Of a DNA stretch of 32,000 nucleotides, positions 15,716 to 22,985 are shown piece by piece. How positions within the stretch are numbered: position 1 is the first letter of the stretch; the number at the start of each line of letters is the position of its first letter. The DNA comes from Hungatella hathewayi (GTDB lineage: Bacteria > Bacillota > Clostridia > Lachnospirales > Lachnospiraceae), in assembly GCF_025149285.1 (NCBI RefSeq), contig NZ_CP102274.1; one strand, 5' to 3'. Under the pieces are notes generated by a model. It saw nothing but the letters and a program-made list of their open reading frames with translations. It did no database searches and had not been told where the DNA came from. A program made the position numbers and the translations under genes.

Positions 15716-16873
15716 ATGTTCCTGGAACAAACTGTAAAACGGAATCCGGAACTGGTCCGGCTGGCATTCAGTCTCCACAGGCAGGGAATCATAGAACCGG
15801 ATTCCTATCTCATTGATGTGGACACCTTTTTGCAAAATGCGGAGGAAATGCTGGAGTGCTCCAGGCAAAATGGCGTAAAGCTTTACTTTATGCTGAAACA
15901 GCTGGGGCGCAATCCCTATCTGGCAAAGGAGCTGATGAGGCTGGGATATTCCGGCGCGGTGGCTGTTGACTATAAAGAGGCCGCCGTAATGATGGAGCAT
16001 GGGATTCCGATCGGAAATGCAGGGCATCTGGTACAGATACCGACGGCTCAGGTAAGACAGATTGTCTCCTGCCGCCCGGAGGTCATCACCGTCTACTCAG
16101 AAGAGAAAATACACCAGATTGATCAGGCCGCGTCGGAACTGGGCGTGATACAGGAAATTCTGCTGCGGGTGTATGGTGAAGGTGATATGATTTATTCCGG
16201 GCAGACAGCCGGTTTTCATTTAAATACCCTGGAAGAACTGGCGGATCGTATCGTTGGTTCATATCCCCATGTGAGAATTGCGGGTGTCACCTCTTTTCCC
16301 TGTTACTTATATGATGAGCAGCTGGATGACATCGTTCCTACGGCTAATTTAAAAACCGTAACGCGTGCGGTAGCAATCTTAAAGTCGCGGGGAATTCTCT
16401 GCCGTATCATCAATACTCCCTCAGCAACCTGCTGTCGTACCATTGAACGGATGAAGCGGGACGGGGGAAATTGTGGTGAGCCGGGACATGGCTTTTCCGG
16501 AACAACCCCCATGCATGCCGCCCATGAACTGCCGGAACGACCGTGTGTAGTTTACATAAGTGAAGTTTCTCATAATTTCGAAGGCCGCGGATACTGTTTT
16601 GGAGGCGGTCATTACAGGCGATCCCATATGAAGAATGCATTGGTAGGAGACAGTTTTTTAAATGCTAGGCACGTGGAGGTAATTCCTCCGGCGGATGACA
16701 GTATTGATTACCATTTCGGATTAACAAAAGAGTGCCCTGTAGGCCAGACGGTGGTGATGGCGTTTCGGTATCAGATATTTGTTACCCGTTCAGATGTTGT
16801 GCTGGTCACCGGACTTAGAAAGGGAGCGCCGAGGATTGAAGGAATCTATGACAGCGCGGGCAGAGAGAAATGA
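15716..16873 (+). CDS. yhfX: YhfX-family fold-type-III PLP enzyme (alanine-racemase-like N-terminal barrel)
   Basis: 385-aa ORF. Its ATG directly follows the yhfS stop codon (15713-15715). The early candidate PLP lysine YFMLKQLGRNP and the overall size match E. coli YhfX (387 aa). Confidence 0.82.
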   Translation: MFLEQTVKRNPELVRLAFSLHRQGIIEPDSYLIDVDTFLQNAEEMLECSRQNGVKLYFMLKQLGRNPYLAKELMRLGYSGAVAVDYKEAAVMMEHGIPIGNAGHLVQIPTAQVRQIVSCRPEVITVYSEEKIHQIDQAASELGVIQEILLRVYGEGDMIYSGQTAGFHLNTLEELADRIVGSYPHVRIAGVTSFPCYLYDEQLDDIVPTANLKTVTRAVAILKSRGILCRIINTPSATCCRTIERMKRDGGNCGEPGHGFSGTTPMHAAHELPERPCVVYISEVSHNFEGRGYCFGGGHYRRSHMKNALVGDSFLNARHVEVIPPADDSIDYHFGLTKECPVGQTVVMAFRYQIFVTRSDVVLVTGLRKGAPRIEGIYDSAGREK

Positions 16874-18081
16874 AGAAGAGATTTATTGTTATTATACTGG
16901 ATGGATTTGGGATCGGGGCGATGAAGGATGCCTGTATCGTGAGGCCGGGCGATGAAACAGCCAACACGCTCGGAAGTATTTTAAAGGACTCCCCCGACAT
17001 GAAGCTGCCGGTCCTGGAACGGCTGGGGCTGATGAATGCGTTCGGGAGGGAGAGCGCAGCCATGAAATTCAGCCCTTCCGCTAATTACGGGAGATGCGAA
17101 CTGATGCACTATGGTGCGGATACTTTTATGGGGCATCAGGAAATCATGGGAACACTGCCAATAAAACCGACGGCGCATCCATTTCTGGAGAAGGCGGAGG
17201 AGGTAAGCCGGTATTTGAGGCAGAACGGGCATGATGTCCATGTTATCGAGAAACAGGGGCTTAAATATCTGATTGTAGATCGGTACGCCACGGTGGCAGA
17301 CAACCTGGAGGCGGATCCGGGAATGTGCTATAATGTGACGGCGCCTCTTGATTTTATGCCGTTTGAGGAAGAGGTGGAGATCGCCCGCCTGGTCCGCGAG
17401 GTAGTGACCGTGGGCCGTGTGATCGTGTTTGGCGGCACCGGCAACACAATGGAAGATTTGCAGAGGGCGGAAGAGATAAAGCTTGGAAATTATATCGGCA
17501 TTGCATCTGCAAAATCAAAATCGTATGAGCACGGTTATCAGTGCAGACATCTGGGATATGGAGTGGATAAACAGGTACAGGCGCCGACCATACTGACAAA
17601 TGCCGGGGTTCACTGTACGCTCATAGGGAAGGTGGCTGACATTGTGGCTAATGACGGCGGTGAGAGTATTTCCTGCGTCCCGACGGAGGAAGTGATGCGG
17701 CTTACGGTTCAGGCGGTAAAGAACATGGAGAAGGGCTTTGTCTGTACCAATGTGCAGGAGACCGATCTGGCGGGTCATTCACAATCTGCGGCGGCTTACC
17801 GGGAGATACTGGAGACCGCGGACCGGGGAATCGGTGCAGTGCTGGAGGAGATGGAGGCGGAAGATATCCTGGTTGTCATGGCAGACCACGGTAATGATCC
17901 CAATATCGGGCACAGCCGGCATACGAGGGAATGCGTGCCGTTACTCATTTATACAAGGGGGATGAGCGGACGGGAGATTGGTACCAGAAAGACACTTTCG
18001 GATGTTGGGGCATCTGTATGCAGTTTTTTTGGGGTGAAGAGTACGCAGAATGGGACGTCATTTCTAGAAGATCTTCGTTGA
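16870..18081 (+). CDS. yhfW: YhfW-family phosphopentomutase-like metalloenzyme (DeoB / alkaline-phosphatase superfamily)
   Basis: 403-aa ORF with an ATGA overlap onto yhfX. The N-terminal metal/phospho-acceptor block VIILDGFGIGAMKDA resembles DeoB MVLDSFGIGA. The C-terminal block VVMADHGNDPNIGHSRHTRE resembles DeoB TADHGCDP. Confidence 0.85.
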   Translation: MKKRFIVIILDGFGIGAMKDACIVRPGDETANTLGSILKDSPDMKLPVLERLGLMNAFGRESAAMKFSPSANYGRCELMHYGADTFMGHQEIMGTLPIKPTAHPFLEKAEEVSRYLRQNGHDVHVIEKQGLKYLIVDRYATVADNLEADPGMCYNVTAPLDFMPFEEEVEIARLVREVVTVGRVIVFGGTGNTMEDLQRAEEIKLGNYIGIASAKSKSYEHGYQCRHLGYGVDKQVQAPTILTNAGVHCTLIGKVADIVANDGGESISCVPTEEVMRLTVQAVKNMEKGFVCTNVQETDLAGHSQSAAAYREILETADRGIGAVLEEMEAEDILVVMADHGNDPNIGHSRHTRECVPLLIYTRGMSGREIGTRKTLSDVGASVCSFFGVKSTQNGTSFLEDLR

Positions 18082-18132: not shown

Positions 18133-18161
18133 TTGAATTTCAGGTTCGAATTGAGTATAAT
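18133..18161 (+). promoter_or_regulatory. Near-consensus orphan sigma-A promoter pointing at the IS3 left end
   Basis: TTGAAT (18133-18138), exactly 17 nt, TATAAT (18156-18161). No ORF with an SD follows before the IS boundary at 18255. Confidence 0.5.
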
Positions 18162-18315
18162 AAAGACATAAAAGGAACAACCGCCCACAAAGTGGTTAAC
18201 CCGATTAATAAGTTACATTCATAGAAATGCCACCCAGTAACTGGTCAAAGTATATGATATGATACCTCTTAAGTAGACAAGATAAATAACCAAAATCTAC
18301 TTAGGAGGTATTTTT

Positions 18316-18993
18316 ATGTCCAAATCCCCTCATACTTCGGAATTCCGTGCAAAGGTGTCACAGGAATACCTTGATGGATTGGGTTCCTATAATTATTTAG
18401 CCACTAAATATAATATCGGGTGTAAAACATTGAAAGAGTGGGTTGCTAAATACAGAATTCATGGAATCGGAGCATTTATTCGTAAAACGGGGAATGCTTC
18501 TTACTCATCCGATTTTAAAACCATGTGTGTCGAAGCGGTTTTATCTGGTGATGGAAGCGTAGATGATATCGCTGCTAAATATAACATTTCTTCAAGAAGG
18601 GTACTCAGCCAATGGGTTGTGAGTTATAATGCCAATAGAGAACTTAAGGATTATGTTCCGAAAAGGGAGGTCTATATGGCAGAGGCCAGAAGAAAAACAA
18701 CCGTTGCTGAACGCAAAGAAATCGTTGAGTATTGTATTAAACATAACCATGATTATAAAGGGACTGCAGGCATTTATAACGTTTCATACAGCCAGGTTTA
18801 TTCCTGGGTAAAAAAGTATGATGTGAATGGAGAAGACGGTTTAACAGATAAACGCGGCCATCACAGAGCAGATAATGAAGTGGATGAACTGGAGCGTTTA
18901 CGGCGGGAAAATCTCAGGTTGAAACGCCAGCTGGAAGAAAAGGATAAGGCTGTTGAACTACTAAAAAAAGTGAAAGAATTCGAAAGGATGTGA
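18316..18993 (+). CDS. IS3-family transposase OrfA (multiple HTH motifs + leucine-zipper-like C-terminus)
   Basis: 225-aa ORF with SD taggaggt. It has repeated HTH-like segments (YLATKYNIGCKTLKEWVAKY, DIAAKYNISSRRVLSQWV, TAGIYNVSYSQVYSWVKKY) and a coiled-coil ELERLRRENLRLKRQLEEKDKAVELLKK. Confidence 0.9.
   Translation: MSKSPHTSEFRAKVSQEYLDGLGSYNYLATKYNIGCKTLKEWVAKYRIHGIGAFIRKTGNASYSSDFKTMCVEAVLSGDGSVDDIAAKYNISSRRVLSQWVVSYNANRELKDYVPKREVYMAEARRKTTVAERKEIVEYCIKHNHDYKGTAGIYNVSYSQVYSWVKKYDVNGEDGLTDKRGHHRADNEVDELERLRRENLRLKRQLEEKDKAVELLKKVKEFERM
18963..18969 (+). other. Programmed -1 ribosomal frameshift heptamer (A AAA AAA g) for the OrfAB fusion
   Basis: An A7G run sits in orfA frame as cta.aaa.aaa.gtg. 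The -1 (orfB) frame is open from 18957, after the stop at 18954-18956, so slippage here reads through ...KK|SERIRKDVKLGKL... into orfB. Confidence 0.7.
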
Positions 18994-19955
18994 AGCTTGG
19001 AAAGCTGCGTTACGAATCAAAATATTTAGCAATCAGACATTTCCATGAAACAGAGCAGTGGAGCATTGCATGGATGTGCAAACAGCTTGAAATCTCAAGG
19101 GCGGCTTATTATAAATGGCTGGACCGGGAGATTCCGAAACAGGAATCGGAAAATCTTAAGCTGGCAGAACTGATTAAAGAATACGATCAACGCTTTGGCC
19201 ATATCTTAGGCTATCGAAGAATGACTTCATGGGTCAATCGCTTTAACCATACTGCTTATGGAAAAAAGCGGGTACATCGGATTATGAAGAAACTGGGTAT
19301 TCAATCTGTAATCAGAAAGAAAAAGAAAAAATATGTATCTTCTCCCCCGGAAACAACCGCAGAAAACAAGCTATGCAGGGATTTTTATGCGTCTGCACCA
19401 AACCAGAAATGGTCTACAGATGTAACTGAGTTTAAAATACCGGGCGAAAAAAAGAAGCTGTATCTAAGTGTAATCATTGATTTATATGACCGATACCCTG
19501 TTTCCTATGTAATCAGCAGCCGGAATGATAATCAACTGGTGTTTAAAACATTTGATAAGGCGGTGATCTCCAATCCGAACGCAGCGCCGATTTTTCATAG
19601 TGACAGAGGTTTTCAATATACGAGCAGAGTGTTTCAGAAGAAACTAAAGGAACATGAAATGGAACAATCCATGTCAAGAGCAGGACACTGTATTGATAAT
19701 GGCCCCACAGAAGGTTTCTGGGGAATTATAAAATCAGAAATGTATCAGATGTATGAAATTACTGATGAAACGACATTGAGACATGCAATAAAGGAATATA
19801 TGAAGTTTTATAGCGCAGAACGTCCTCAAGACAGGTATCATTGTAAGACACCGTTAGAAGTAAGGAATGAGGCAATCGCTGCTGAACATCCAGAAGAATA
19901 CCCTATTCCTAAAAACAAGCGAATCGAAAAATATAAAGAAAAATGGTGTGCATAG
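18990..19955 (+). CDS. IS3-family transposase OrfB (DDE / rve integrase core)
   Basis: 321-aa ORF with the DDE triad contexts WSTDVTEF, IFHSDRGFQYTS and IDNGPTEGFWGIIK. It is in the -1 frame relative to orfA. Confidence 0.9.
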   Translation: MKLGKLRYESKYLAIRHFHETEQWSIAWMCKQLEISRAAYYKWLDREIPKQESENLKLAELIKEYDQRFGHILGYRRMTSWVNRFNHTAYGKKRVHRIMKKLGIQSVIRKKKKKYVSSPPETTAENKLCRDFYASAPNQKWSTDVTEFKIPGEKKKLYLSVIIDLYDRYPVSYVISSRNDNQLVFKTFDKAVISNPNAAPIFHSDRGFQYTSRVFQKKLKEHEMEQSMSRAGHCIDNGPTEGFWGIIKSEMYQMYEITDETTLRHAIKEYMKFYSAERPQDRYHCKTPLEVRNEAIAAEHPEEYPIPKNKRIEKYKEKWCA

Positions 19956-19959
19956 AAAA

Positions 19960-19980
19960 ACGGCCACAAAATGTGGCCGT
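19960..19980. terminator. Hairpin just inside the IS3 right end
   Basis: 9-bp stem acggccaca / tgtggccgt with an aaa loop. An A5 run precedes it on the plus strand, which gives a T5 run after it on the minus strand. It would therefore block inward antisense read-through. Confidence 0.45.
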
Positions 19981-20069
19981 TCATCAGCCCCTCGTTTTAA
20001 ATATTTCACCTGTCTACTTGACAGGGGGCATATCAATAGAGGGTGGTTTTTCTATGCCTTAAATAAGCA

Positions 20070-20153
20070 CTATCGACAGAACGTAAATACGAACGTCAGC
20101 AATGCCAGGATGAACAGTCCAAAAGTCATTAAATCCTTAAAGTCAAATTTCAT
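20070..20153 (-). CDS. 27-aa hydrophobic peptide, putative holin-like / type I toxin
   Basis: It is not in the ORF track. Translation: MKFDFKDLMTFGLFILALLTFVFTFCR. GGAGGTG lies 8 nt upstream of the ATG. It has a single TM helix with a charged N-terminus and basic C-terminus, and resembles the short Firmicute putative holin-like toxin peptides (from memory). Confidence 0.5.
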   Translation of the reverse strand: MKFDFKDLMTFGLFILALLTFVFTFCR

Positions 20154-20161
20154 CCGCATCA

Positions 20162-20188
20162 CCTCCATTCTATGTAGTAGAATGGAGG
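20162..20188 (-). promoter_or_regulatory. SD-sequestering hairpin in the toxin 5' UTR
   Basis: On the mRNA the structure is CCUCCAUUCU-acuacau-AGAAUGGAGG, a perfect 10-bp stem with a 7-nt loop. The 3' arm contains the GGAGG SD of the 27-aa ORF. Confidence 0.55.
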
Positions 20189-20304
20189 TCAACCACCCTG
20201 TAACACGATTGTTCCATAAAATGGTTTATCATAATAAAAAGTATATTTCAATTAAAAACGTTGTATTTCCCGCGGCGTATTTCTGTTCTGCAACAATTTA
20301 TTTT

Positions 20305-21351
20305 CTACGATTTTTTCCAACTAAAATACAATCTTGCTATCACATCTTCAATAGGCGCTCTTCTGATTTCCACATCCTCAATACCTTCAAATTCCGCAAG
20401 GTAACCAAGAACCTCATGGATTGCGGTCTGATTTCGGTTGAACTCGTATTCGTAAATCCCTCCATTGGAAGAGAGCAGCTGTAATCCTGGAATTGCAGGA
20501 GCACTTAAGAGCCCCCCAGCTGCGGCAGACTGCTTATCAGAGCCGGGGCTTCTCATGGTGACAACGATTCTGGAACAGGCGCCGGCCGTATTTCTGAGTT
20601 CATCAAAATTTCCGTCAAATGCAATCTGCCCTTTATTCAGAAGAATAATCCGCTGTGCCATCTCCTCCAGATCATCCATGTCATGGCTTGTGACGATAAT
20701 CGTGGTTCCGCATTCCCGGTTAATTTCCTTTAAAAAGTGTATCATCTGCTGTTTGGCCAGCACATCCAGGCCCAGTGTCGGCTCATCTAGGAAAATTACG
20801 GAAGGATCGTGCAGAAGCAGCATCGCAATATCCGCCCGCATGCGCTGTCCAAGGCTCAGTTCCCTGGCAAATGTGTGAAGGAGGTCTTTCAGATCGAGCA
20901 GTTCCGTTACAAGTGCCAGATTTTTTTTGTATACTGCATCCGGGATTCCCCATACCTCCTTTTTCCATTCGAAGCTGGTAATGACGGGATGATCCCACCA
21001 GGTTTCCGTCCGCTGTCCGAACAGTACGCCAACATGACGCATGAGTTCGATCCGGTCTGTGGCAGGATTGAAACCGGACACGGACACCGTGCCCTCTGAA
21101 GGGCTTAAGATACCGGAGAGGATCTTAATGGTTGTGCTCTTGCCGGCTCCGTTGGCTCCGGCGTAAGCGACAAACTCACCCGGAGCCACTTCGAAGGAAA
21201 GATGATCGAGTGCTGTGATGATGCGTTTCTGAGGGCGAAGCATATTTTTTAAGATATCCCGTGCGTGGCCGCTTCTCTGCCATTGGGAATACTGTTTTGT
21301 AACATTATCGATGACCAAAGCCGGAGTATCGTGGCGAACCGTTGACTGCAT
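20305..21351 (-). CDS. ABC transporter ATP-binding protein (uncharacterised ABC-2 system, COG4586-like) with an approximately 100-aa C-terminal extension
   Basis: 348-aa ORF with Walker A GANGAGKST, signature LSLGQR, Walker B VIFLDEPTLGLD and the H-loop TSHD. It overlaps the upstream permease gene by 47 nt. Confidence 0.9.
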   Translation of the reverse strand: MQSTVRHDTPALVIDNVTKQYSQWQRSGHARDILKNMLRPQKRIITALDHLSFEVAPGEFVAYAGANGAGKSTTIKILSGILSPSEGTVSVSGFNPATDRIELMRHVGVLFGQRTETWWDHPVITSFEWKKEVWGIPDAVYKKNLALVTELLDLKDLLHTFARELSLGQRMRADIAMLLLHDPSVIFLDEPTLGLDVLAKQQMIHFLKEINRECGTTIIVTSHDMDDLEEMAQRIILLNKGQIAFDGNFDELRNTAGACSRIVVTMRSPGSDKQSAAAGGLLSAPAIPGLQLLSSNGGIYEYEFNRNQTAIHEVLGYLAEFEGIEDVEIRRAPIEDVIARLYFSWKKS

Positions 21352-22165
21352 AATATTTCATTCCTTTCTTAAATACATAAATTGTGAACAGTGATAATGC
21401 CAATGCCGCTGCCGGCAGATAACATGCCTGCAAAAGCAGTACAGCGCTTAAGCCGCCGTTCCCTGCTTTTAAAAGCAGCTCCGACGGAAACCAGGCAGCC
21501 AGCCCCACTGGAAGCACGGTCAGGAACAGCCGTTTGACGGAATGGTTCATCGTGCCCAGCGGATAAGTCTTCAGAGAAGTAAATAAATCCCTGCCTGTCT
21601 GGGCGATCTCCTCGGCTGCCGCAGGTGCGTAAAATGCTGCGCAGGACAGGAGGACCATAACGGATAAGACCAATATGGTGGAGCTGACCGCATAGATAAG
21701 CAGCAGAAGCAGCCAGGGCAGTGTGGCGGATAGGGGCAGCCGTCTGACTGTATACGCCGTCAGTCCGATTCCGCATACCAGCATACTGCTTCCAGACAGC
21801 GGGGAAAAGCCCTGGGCCAGCAGTTCTGCCCATAGGGGAACCGGCTGTATCATTATGTGATCCAGCTGCCCCCGTCCTATGATGCGGCTTATCATAGACG
21901 TATTATTACCGATAAAAAACATCATATAGATTCCGTCAACGAGAGTGGAGAAGCCCATCATAAAGAGTATCTCCCCCTGATTCATGCCTCCGAAGCCGCC
22001 GAATTTTTCGGAAAGCAGGAAAACGCCTGCGATGGTACAAACCGCGCATACCGTGTCTGAAAAGATTTGAAGCAGACAGTAGCGGGTGTCCCGAAGAAAC
22101 CACAGGAGGTCCATTTTTGTGTATTGCCTGTAAAGACGAAACAGTATTTTTAAATTATCCACCAA
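21305..22165 (-). CDS. ABC-2 family transporter permease (COG3694/COG4587-type)
   Basis: 286-aa polytopic ORF with about 6 TM segments. It is translationally linked to both neighbours by an 11-nt and a 47-nt overlap. Confidence 0.78.
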   Translation of the reverse strand: MVDNLKILFRLYRQYTKMDLLWFLRDTRYCLLQIFSDTVCAVCTIAGVFLLSEKFGGFGGMNQGEILFMMGFSTLVDGIYMMFFIGNNTSMISRIIGRGQLDHIMIQPVPLWAELLAQGFSPLSGSSMLVCGIGLTAYTVRRLPLSATLPWLLLLLIYAVSSTILVLSVMVLLSCAAFYAPAAAEEIAQTGRDLFTSLKTYPLGTMNHSVKRLFLTVLPVGLAAWFPSELLLKAGNGGLSAVLLLQACYLPAAALALSLFTIYVFKKGMKYYAVNGSPRYSGFGHR

Positions 22166-22985
22166 AAGAAATCATCCTTTCTTTGCTTTTTTTAAATACC
22201 ATGGCCGCTGTAATCCACAAAATCACATTCCAGATAAGCTGCAGCCCAATGGTTCTAAAGGGGGATGCGGCCATGCCGGTATAGATGGTGAGCGGTGCAT
22301 GGGCGATCGAGCCAAAAGGGAGACAGGAAAAAAACTTATCCAGTCCCCATGGAAACAGGGCAAAGGGAATCATTTCCCCTGACAGGAGGGAAAATGCTGC
22401 CTCCCGTATACTGGCTGCTGCCCAGCAGCCATTTTTTAAGAACATGGCAAAAGCGGCAAACAGCAGGTCGAGGGCAAATCCCAGAGAGGCCGAAAGCATC
22501 AGACTGATGAACGCCATCAATCCGGAGGCAGAGTCTGCCGGAGCCGGATTTACATGTAAAAACGGCGAGATGATCAGCAGAGGAAGGCCAAAAAACAGAA
22601 AATTCGGAATCCACCACCGTCCGATCGTTTCAGCGATGAAACTGACCGGAACGGGCACCGGCCGGGTAAAACGTCCAATGACAGAACCTTCCCACAGTGA
22701 GGAGGTAGCCGGTGAAATAATATTTAATTCCTGATGAAAAACGGTTGCCATCAGCGTATATGTCATCAGCTGATTTAATGTCATGCCTCCTAAACCGGCA
22801 CCTTCCCGGTCCAGGGCGGTCCAGATAAAAACGAGCATGACAAACTGAACGGCAGAAACAAGATATCCGCCTGCGATGCACAGGATACCGCCGTCAAAAA
22901 TTTGTTTTGTACACATCAGTACAGTGGAAACAATGGCGCGGGGCCCGCAGCCATGTCCGGCAAGAAATGTCTTAAATTTATTCAT
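22155..22985 (-). CDS. ABC-2 family transporter permease (second subunit)
   Basis: 276-aa polytopic ORF, the first gene of a permease-permease-ATPase operon on the minus strand. Confidence 0.78.
   Translation of the reverse strand: MNKFKTFLAGHGCGPRAIVSTVLMCTKQIFDGGILCIAGGYLVSAVQFVMLVFIWTALDREGAGLGGMTLNQLMTYTLMATVFHQELNIISPATSSLWEGSVIGRFTRPVPVPVSFIAETIGRWWIPNFLFFGLPLLIISPFLHVNPAPADSASGLMAFISLMLSASLGFALDLLFAAFAMFLKNGCWAAASIREAAFSLLSGEMIPFALFPWGLDKFFSCLPFGSIAHAPLTIYTGMAASPFRTIGLQLIWNVILWITAAMVFKKSKERMISFGG

Follow-up and report, generated by a model that had tools for sequence, protein, structure and literature searches.

What did the IS3-family insertion sequence (IS) at positions 18255–20035 of this Hungatella hathewayi DNA interrupt, and was its arrival there an accident? 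The stretch analysed, 32,000 nucleotides (nt) of contig NZ_CP102274.1 and called the window below, carries on either side of the element the parts of what a preliminary description, made from the letters alone, took for a type I toxin–antitoxin (TA) locus: a short membrane peptide and a convergent small RNA (sRNA). Comparison with related loci leads us, with a probability of about 0.7, to regard window 18133–20251 as a copy, split by the IS3-family element, of a module that is conserved in Lachnospiraceae, occurs many times over and has type I TA architecture. Each structural part of the earlier interpretation (the gene, the Shine–Dalgarno (SD) hairpin, the restored hairpin and the convergent promoter) has comparative evidence behind it. 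In IS-free Hungatella the intact module measures ∼330 bp and consists of two convergent genes. Its parts in the window are as follows.

20070–20153, minus strand: 27-codon open reading frame (ORF) for the membrane peptide MKFDFKDLMTFGLFILALLTFVFTFCR, a putative type I toxin (family size, codon pattern, weak similarity to Hol_Tox, ComI and PepG1)
20162–20188, minus strand: predicted SD-sequestering hairpin, anti-SD CCUCC and SD GGAGG (fold and family conservation)
20189–20216, minus strand: conserved 5′ leader of the peptide mRNA, GGAACAAUCGUGUUACAGGGUGGUUGACC, which contains GUUACAGGGUGG (near-invariant columns including CAGGGUG)
20223–20251, minus strand: probable peptide-gene promoter, TTGAAA-17-(TGa)TAAACC, overlapped by an alternative −10, TATGAT (position conserved in the family)
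18133–18161, plus strand: promoter of the antisense RNA, a putative antitoxin, TTGAAT-17-TATAAT (10/12 match and family conservation)
18168–18254, plus strand: retained 5′ part of the sRNA, with leader AAAAGGAACAACCG, 5′ hairpin (∼18179–18197, loop CCACAAA), linker, terminator arm CATAGAAATGCCACCC and loop (18236–18254)
20039–20056, both strands: the other half of the terminator, serving as 5′ arm of the peptide-mRNA terminator and as 3′ arm and U-tract of the sRNA

A conserved family of small membrane peptides

The small ORF is a genuine gene and is strongly selected. It lies where the preliminary description placed it, reads from 20153 to 20070 and has GGAGG (complement of 20162–20166) 8 nt 5′ of its ATG. 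The peptide, shorter than 60 amino acids (aa), contains the hydrophobic stretch LMTFGLFILALLTFVFTF and one predicted transmembrane helix. Family ORFs are 27–33 codons long and share the core FDFKDLMTFGLF[IL]LALLTFVFTFC[KR] with variable, polar N-termini; 15 residues are invariant among 17 diverse members. A degenerate-pattern scan of species-representative genomes gave at least 479 loci confirmed by tblastn, often several per genome. A search with a 40-codon extended frame returned 94 protein clusters, one of them on 885 contigs, and a profile search of 1.84 billion representative proteins recovered 303 clusters (50% identity) at E ≤ 0.001 in which the motif is kept. Among the matches listed, loci come from Hungatella, Lacrimispora, [Clostridium] symbiosum, Robinsoniella, Roseburia, Blautia, Dorea, Murimonas, Mediterraneibacter, Kineothrix and many other Lachnospiraceae; members include mouse-gut isolates.

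Across 67 distinct loci, the variable columns number 9, 4 and 25 at first, second and third codon positions (third positions vary in 25 of 25 codons, second positions in 4), and the corresponding entropies over the core are 4.7, 1.3 and 13.6. Because third positions vary far more than second positions, the peptide must be under strong purifying selection. Current annotations miss or mis-call the gene, because standard gene callers pass over so short an ORF and neither Pfam nor NCBIfam nor Rfam has a model for it; in the databases, many entries are over-extended, with false N-terminal extensions that read the conserved 5′ untranslated region (UTR) in frame. Individual copies also depart from the common layout. 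One contig (L018) carries two tandem copies of the module (1921–2020 and 2479–2578) 558 bp apart, another (L050) has lost the stop codon and terminator and encodes a 49-aa fusion, and a third (L083) is binned as ‘Bacteroides sp.’, probably in error.

Insertion-free alleles restore the hairpin

The two half-sites of the hairpin, CATAGAAATGCCACCC (18220–18235) and GGGTGGTTTTTCTATG (20041–20056, 13 nt beyond the stop codon), stand on opposite sides of the IS. Removing the element and one ATA copy in silico pairs 14 of 16 positions around a 21-nt loop, as the preliminary description had calculated. The same junction exists in nature: IS-free Hungatella contigs (L086–L091) have a 439-bp spacer between the same two flanking genes and carry, beside the small ORF, exactly the reconstructed, uninterrupted hairpin CATAGAAAAACCACCCTCTATACTTTGACCAGTTACTGGGTGGCATTTCTATG, followed by the sRNA 5′ region and then the TATAAT/TTGAAT promoter. 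L086 has a single TAT/ATA at the insertion point. The proposal was to fall if IS-free relatives lacked the restored hairpin; because these contigs carry the reconstructed junction, it does not fall on that ground. The IS does separate the RNA promoter and 5′ part from the terminator and from the peptide gene, as originally supposed.

All contigs with the exact ABC ATPase of the window carry the IS, and those with a slightly different Hungatella ATPase (P0129) are without it. On a metagenome contig (L005) the window junction is continuous and the same IS sits 14 nt away in the opposite orientation. Of the two matches of the metagenome junction search, one (L004) fell by chance in unrelated DNA and was rejected. 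H. hathewayi has proteins identical to the transposase and to those encoded on either side of it; in its strain DSM 13479, EFC98801, EFC98802 and EFC98804 are the accessions of three of these four genes.

The peptide ORF of the window is identical to that of the IS-free allele. The control region (window 20160–20235) differs from L086–L091 by three single-nucleotide polymorphisms. The promoter differs (TGTGATAAACT in the IS-free allele, TATGATAAACC in the window), as does the anti-SD arm (CCTCCTTTCT in the IS-free allele, CCTCCATTCT in the window), so that the IS-free allele alone has a U-U mismatch in its SD hairpin.

Two convergent operons flank the module, at 15716–18081 (plus strand) and 20305–22985 (minus strand) of the window. 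One is a YhfS/YhfX-like and phosphopentomutase-like cluster (NCBIfam PRK12383, 572 bits); the other encodes an ABC-2 type transporter with two permeases and an ATPase.

A predicted structured leader on the peptide mRNA

The peptide mRNA would begin with a ∼30-nt leader whose family consensus is GGAACAAyCGUGUUrCAGGGUG..yUGrCC. Between leader and ORF is the perfect 10-bp hairpin that the preliminary description had noted, formed by CCUCCAUUCU (20179–20188) and AGAAUGGAGG (20162–20171) around a 7-nt loop. Alone it folds with −17.5 kcal/mol (z −7.3); the whole 63-nt 5′ UTR folds with −21.6 kcal/mol (z −2.65). Because insertions and deletions defeat MAFFT alignment of the hairpin, its variants were folded one by one. 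All 43 distinct variants form it, with 8–13 bp and at least three of the six SD-region bases paired (means −11.4 kcal/mol, z −3.7), and the stem is kept despite register shifts and base changes (e.g., U-A to C-G in L080 and L006). A structure of this kind is predicted to hold down translation of the peptide, as in type I systems.

At the peptide promoter a TG-extended −10 is found in 45 of 59 family loci. The −10 itself is TAAACC in IS alleles and TAAACT in the IS-free allele; the window allele also gains TATGAT. The net effect is ambiguous, and the idea that IS alleles have a weakened peptide promoter was rejected.

A putative convergent antisense RNA and a shared terminator

The promoter facing the peptide gene had been singled out for its near-consensus sequence. 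It is present, and matches at 10 of 12 positions. This match alone proves nothing because such matches are not rare in an AT-rich stretch (five promoter-like sites vs 7.7 expected); what recommends it is that its position and orientation are conserved in the family. In nearly all loci a −35 (TTGAAA, TTGACA or TTGCAA), a spacer of ∼17 nt and a −10 (TGnTATATT or TATAAT) occur at a fixed distance. The family sRNA would then consist of AAAAGGAACAACCG as its leader, a 5′ hairpin with stem CAACC/GGUUG and loop GCCCACAAGG, and the terminator hairpin in reverse. Read from the peptide side, the order after the stop codon is ACATAGAAAAACCACCC, a 17–25-nt loop with core CUUUGACC, GGGTGGATTTTTCTAT and then GGTCAACCCACCTTGTGGGCGGTTGTTCCTTTT. 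No conserved ORF lies between antisense promoter and hairpin in the aligned family loci. At the level of sequence, the family would therefore possess a separate antisense RNA gene, and the ∼100-nt, ORF-less convergent RNA of the preliminary description fits it, with promoter and structures conserved family-wide.

Covariation supports these structures. In 61 sRNA-strand sequences, 92.3% of the cells in the proposed helices are paired, vs 34–55% when the partners are slid by 1–3 columns; the figure is 99% for the 5′ hairpin and 99.5% for the inner stem of the terminator. Compensatory changes occur in four pairs and 25 cells, a number reached in none of 500 shuffles. For example, 32 loci have A-U and 22 have C-G at one pair of the outer stem. 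Two hairpins form in the fold of the IS-free sRNA (−32.4 kcal/mol, z −4.2), and the toxin-strand terminator has −20.9 kcal/mol (z −3.7). The A-tract/stem/T-tract hairpin, which covaries over the 61 loci, has the properties expected of a bidirectional terminator common to both strands. Because both transcripts would end in this hairpin, their 3′ ∼55 nt are perfectly complementary, loops included.

The 5′ hairpin shows variation of its own. Two loci (L026 and L060) have 17–18-nt insertions (e.g., TATATGCCCTATGGGTA) in its loop, between CCGCCCA and CAAGG, and a third (L073) is more extensively rearranged there. Present in the short inserts is (A)TATGCCC, a sequence also seen where the right inverted repeat of the IS has its tip; these changes may be footprints of a second insertion hotspot. 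In Blautia an orphan sRNA (L108) has the same 5′-hairpin loop, GCCCACAA, on another stem, GGCCUGCC/GGCAGGCC, with the same type of terminator, which suggests that the loop is a functional element in its own right.

Possible contacts between the two RNAs

Extended pairing is available to the two RNAs in intact alleles, through the 3′ overlap of ∼55 nt. A further contact had been proposed between CCACCCAGTAAC in the sRNA (18230–18241) and GUUACAGGGUGG in the peptide-mRNA leader (complement of 20193–20204). The pairing at 11 of 12 positions is real, but family-wide only the 6-bp core CCACCC:GGGUGG is universal. GGGUGG occurs throughout in the leader, and both RNAs have its complement, CCACCC, in the 5′ arm of the terminator. 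Extension beyond the core is confined to some loci (12/12 in L038) and absent from the largest subgroup. Perfect 12-mers with compensating bases are found in L038 (GCAAC:GUUGC) and L065 (GUAAC:GUUAC). Over 54 distinct loci, cognate duplexes of leader and sRNA (arm plus loop) have −17.68 kcal/mol vs −17.01 for non-cognate ones, a difference of 0.7; five of 5000 permutations were as good, and the median cognate rank was 20.5 of 54. These figures lend weak support to a secondary 5′ UTR–sRNA contact beyond the core. We also considered a kissing contact of leader UUGACC with sRNA loop GGUCAA, which by eye is compensatory in some loci (TTGGCC with GCCAA); it is broken in many and was rejected.

By analogy with txpA/RatA, bsrG/SR4 and par, the sRNA and the peptide mRNA would first touch at their terminator loops, which are complementary (conserved core CUUUGACC/GGUCAAAG). 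This contact would extend to a ∼55-bp duplex, leading to degradation of the mRNA and/or keeping its ribosome-binding site closed. The SD hairpin would keep basal translation of the peptide low, and the invariant GGGUGG next to that hairpin may serve as a secondary point of contact for CCACCC, a C-rich element of the sRNA. The reality of the gene, its conservation, the RNA structures, the empty site and the junctions of the IS are shown by the sequence comparison; transcription of both genes, toxicity of the peptide and its repression by the RNA are inferred.

An insertion sequence that targets the hairpin loop

The interrupting element and its parts are as follows.

18255–20035, plus strand: IS3-family IS, 1781 bp, with inverted repeats TGATATGATACC ... 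GGGGGCATATCA (HTH_28/HTH_Tnp_1 and rve domains)
18252–18254 (left) and 20036–20038 (right): target-site duplication ATA (junction and IS-free allele)
18316–18993 and 18990–19955, plus strand: orfA and orfB, with a slippery A7G run (18963–18970) in their overlap
18262–18311, plus strand: left-end hairpin with a 16-bp stem, predicted to pair the orfA SD AGGAGG in incoming transcripts, then AUUUUUAU (fold of 18168–18317)
19950–19985, minus strand: predicted inward-facing intrinsic terminator at the IS right end, GGCCAC-AUUUU-GUGGCC, then GUUUUUCUAUGC (terminator-like site, motif positions, fold)

The element has the marks of the IS3 family: orfA and orfB overlap in the −1 frame at an A-rich run, the ends are TG...CA (TGATATG...CATATCA), the duplication is 3 bp, and by Pfam orfA has HTH domains and orfB an rve integrase core. 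Its transposase is annotated as IS3 family, from Hungatella hathewayi, and occurs on at least 1000 contigs; contigs of 1781 and 1768 bp hold little beyond the IS.

The preliminary description treated the insertion as an accidental disruption, and here our results depart from it. Other copies of the IS were retrieved through the transposase and their junction flanks compared. Eleven of the 12 distinct flanks are halves of the family hairpin. They come from five loci and two genera and represent the window's own locus with its two insertion positions, three or more further modules in Hungatella, and a single locus in Blautia. Independent insertions have thus entered the same repeated hairpin loop at several loci, and the insertion in the window belongs to a targeted pattern and is no accident. 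In every case the left inverted repeat adjoins the loop core CTTTGACC, either 2 nt away on the core's 5′ side (IS in the sRNA direction) or 5 nt away on its 3′ side (IS in the peptide direction). At the window's locus the two insertions (window and L005) have opposite orientations.

Elsewhere, the target-site duplications are GTG (L106) and AAA (L108). In L106 another peptide gene of the family is cut after CTTTGACCGAGTG, and the GTG duplication is followed by the matching 3′ arm and the reverse-complement sRNA. In Blautia producta (L108) a related IS lies in AAAAAACCACCCC-TACGTTTGACCAG[AAA]/IS/[AAA]CGGGGTGGTTTTTCT. The left flank of L103 is another family sRNA, cut after GGCCAAAGTAT, and L105 and L107 contain two further peptide-gene halves, with both the left and the right junction of L105 at hairpin halves. 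L103 (sRNA-IS-sRNA) and L105 (peptide-IS-peptide) look like the reciprocal products of inversion between IS copies in two modules. The left flank of L093 is rearranged, and look-ups with variant transposases gave no new insertion sites. Several contigs (L092–L097 and L100, from H. hathewayi GCA_022834955.1 and others) have the peptide-side junction CCACCCCAATA/IS in place of CCACCCTCTAT/IS. Their other junction is unchanged and there is no clean 3-bp duplication, as from a separate event or from junction remodelling. Targeting of the IS911 type, beside a sequence resembling the inverted repeats, was considered and rejected: comparison of IS ends with target gave a single alignment at z 2.8, which is too weak.

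The left-end hairpin, which is followed by a U-run, probably guards the element against promoters outside it, as is usual for an IS; the promoter it faces here is the strong one of the sRNA. At the right end, the 11-mer CATAGAAAAAC is common to the IS terminator (19951) and the peptide-gene terminator (20046–20056). By our own estimate a common 11-mer would arise in a 1.8-kb element about once in a thousand trials, and it is unlikely to be due to chance. The 12-mer GUUUUUCUAUGC pairs at 12 of 12 positions with the mRNA's own GCAUAGAAAAAC (20044–20056 side), and the chimeric mRNA folds with −44.9 kcal/mol (z −4.9).

We tentatively put these observations together, at somewhat under even odds, in a reading in which the IS is specialised on the modules as landing pads, shields its transposase, supplies a terminator, inverts segments and co-evolves with the family. 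It would insert at two fixed points beside CTTTGACC, left end facing the core. The left hairpin would hide the orfA SD and so shield the transposase from strong incoming promoters, and the copied terminator tail would leave the interrupted transcript still terminated. Copies in different modules would recombine and invert chromosome segments, which would yield the toxin-IS-toxin and sRNA-IS-sRNA hybrids.

The split allele

With the IS inside the terminator loop, the window no longer has the cognate 3′ overlap, and only the 11/12 contact CCACCCAGUAAC:GUUACAGGGUGG is left. Transcripts from the sRNA promoter would run into the IS left-end hairpin. The peptide mRNA would enter the right end of the IS in antisense, where the IS-borne surrogate terminator would restore its outer stem. 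How the split might be tolerated can be sketched in several ways. The SD hairpin is strong (perfect in the window, mismatched in the IS-free allele), and may suffice to keep translation down; the promoter differences may contribute, with ambiguous effect; the residual 11/12 contact may still act; and paralogous sRNAs, which have at least 16 nt of perfect complementarity to the terminator arm retained in the window mRNA, may stand in for the cognate one.

Toxin–antitoxin pair or something else

The architecture suggests that the module probably functions as a TA pair. A number of observations weigh against this. The peptide is ∼90% identical across genera, unusually conserved for a type I toxin, and such extreme conservation is as compatible with a specific role in the cell as with toxicity. 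IS-disrupted alleles with an intact peptide ORF are widespread in H. hathewayi, including DSM 13479, so loss of the cognate antisense overlap is tolerated. A homologue of the sRNA occurs without any peptide gene in Blautia producta (L108, ∼640–770 and 2546–2700). The sRNA 5′ domain pairs with the peptide mRNA (5′ UTR plus ORF) no better than dinucleotide shuffles do (−26.9 vs −24.5 kcal/mol); one subgroup reaches z ∼−3 through pairing of CCGCCC with the GGGGG SD, which is not general. A literature search found neither the peptide motif nor transcript, toxicity or rescue data for any family member. Finally, the peptide stays below the thresholds of the nearest curated models, with 14.2 bits against a cut-off of 23.3 for Pfam Hol_Tox (PF16935) and 16.2 bits against 55 for NCBIfam ComI (NF052249).

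The family as a whole shows faint similarity to these models. Sixteen of the 17 diverse members match Hol_Tox weakly (best E 2.4e-4) and 16 match ComI (best E 6e-5), in both cases within the helix (..FG.FI.ALLT[FY]). The type I toxin model PepG1 (NF041589) matches four of the 17, below its curated cut-off (best 0.034). The peptide family is possibly a distant relative of Hol_Tox, not a demonstrated member. Comparison of the peptide and its relatives with NCBIfam gave no Fst-family match, and tblastn of the peptide against phage and plasmid collections gave none either, although the low-complexity filter may have masked the query. At the Rfam gathering score the window yields only the bacterial large signal recognition particle RNA (RF01854; 29918–30179, plus strand; 194.7 bits), and for an intact locus (L056), searched with E-value thresholds, the best score is 23 bits against a gathering threshold of 91.

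Of the alternatives, the one that survives best, though we consider it unlikely, makes the peptide a regulated, non-lethal small membrane protein (e.g., a subunit or modulator of a membrane complex) and the RNA an ordinary cis-antisense regulator. The 15 invariant residues and the motif kept across 303 clusters would suit such a protein, as would the IS-split alleles, which are common and evidently viable, and the naming of ComI, the nearest NCBIfam match, as a competence inhibitor. However, the module agrees with type I TA loci point by point, in its very short hydrophobic peptide, silenced SD, constitutive-looking antisense promoter and multi-copy paralogy, and paralogous sRNAs complementary to the retained arm could explain why IS alleles are tolerated.

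Two further alternatives draw on a resemblance between the leaders. The peptide-mRNA leader (20189–20216, minus strand) and the sRNA leader (18170–18200, plus strand) are ∼80% identical in the same sense, which makes them an inverted repeat in the DNA. The similarity has a mean z of 6.1 over 55 family loci, and the two leaders co-vary within loci (0.866 vs 0.839; none of 2000 permutations as high). A peptide transcript that reads through the terminator in the IS-free allele could fold its 3′ extension onto its own leader in a ∼28-bp helix (−93.7 kcal/mol, z −8.1, vs z −3.1 for the terminated form). The downstream block might then be the 3′ end of a longer, hok-like peptide mRNA, with no separate sRNA and a promoter present by coincidence. 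Substitutions in the first leader block are indeed biased towards types compatible with G-U pairing on the peptide strand, but the bias is reversed in the second block and weak overall (74 vs 50, p 0.04). Moreover, the hairpin has the A-tract/T-tract symmetry of a bidirectional terminator, and nearly all loci conserve the antisense −35 and TG-extended −10 at a fixed distance. We regard a module without an sRNA as very improbable; a read-through fold and an sRNA are not mutually exclusive. Equally improbable is that the unit is mainly repeated DNA (a landing pad or miniature mobile element with ∼30-nt inverted repeats) in which ORF and ‘sRNA’ are incidental: its imperfect, co-varying inverted repeat, its multiple copies and its attraction for the IS would agree with this, but the codon-position pattern proves selection on the peptide, conservation reaches outward past the repeats into both promoters, and the unit itself showed neither target-site duplications nor any association with a transposase.

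Should the peptide prove toxic and the RNA act as its antitoxin, the module would represent a large, previously unannotated type I TA family in the Lachnospiraceae, a dominant gut clade for which almost no RNA regulators have been described. The complete conserved architecture leads to defined, testable RNAs, and the natural IS-split and IS-free Hungatella alleles provide a ready-made genetic comparison. The hairpin-specific IS, for its part, offers a Firmicute example of loop-targeted transposition in the IS3 family, with visible genome rearrangement.

Comparison with known systems

The preliminary description compared the locus with bsrG/SR4 and txpA/RatA. The comparison is apt, and the common bidirectional terminator recalls par of pAD1 as well. 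Like txpA/RatA, bsrG/SR4 and bsrE/SR5 of Bacillus subtilis and EF3263 of Enterococcus faecalis, the module encodes a short single-helix peptide in Firmicutes hosts. To judge from sequence, it likewise has a convergent antitoxin RNA of ∼100 nt that would overlap the 3′ end of the toxin mRNA, and a structured, poorly accessible ribosome-binding site. Fozo et al. (2010, PMC2887945) treat the TxpA family and ‘holin-like toxins’ as one; they found sequences resembling TxpA in Clostridiales, and for the relative EF3263 they detected an RNA of ∼110 nt that overlaps the 3′ UTR. The module differs from this type in that its peptide is shorter (27–33 aa) and, apart from a single K/R, has no charged tail. 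In essence only the terminator hairpin overlaps (∼55 nt), not 75–123 nt, and the sRNA has a conserved 5′ hairpin of its own and a leader resembling that of the toxin.

In the par locus of pAD1 from Enterococcus faecalis, the convergent RNAs of fst (RNA I and RNA II) end at one bidirectional terminator and have complementary loops that could start their interaction, a 5′ stem-loop limits translation, and the two 5′ regions owe their complementarity around the start codon to direct repeats. Here too, both convergent transcripts would use one bidirectional terminator hairpin with complementary loops, and a 5′ hairpin is predicted to limit translation. The leader repeat, by contrast, is inverted in the DNA, so that the leaders have the same sense, and the direct repeats that define par are absent.

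The IS has its own parallels in IS1397 and ISKpn1, IS3-family elements that insert into the loops of palindromic units (REP). As with these, an IS3-family element has repeatedly entered the loop of a repeated chromosomal hairpin. In contrast to them, the host is a Firmicute, and the target is the predicted bidirectional terminator of a peptide/antisense-RNA pair, not a REP element. Two defined points flank the core CTTTGACC, with the left inverted repeat next to it, and the IS itself carries a terminator whose tail copies that of its target (CATAGAAAAAC). Taken with its likenesses to both TA types, the module is best read as a new, type I toxin–antitoxin-like family that would combine txpA/RatA-type and par-type architecture.

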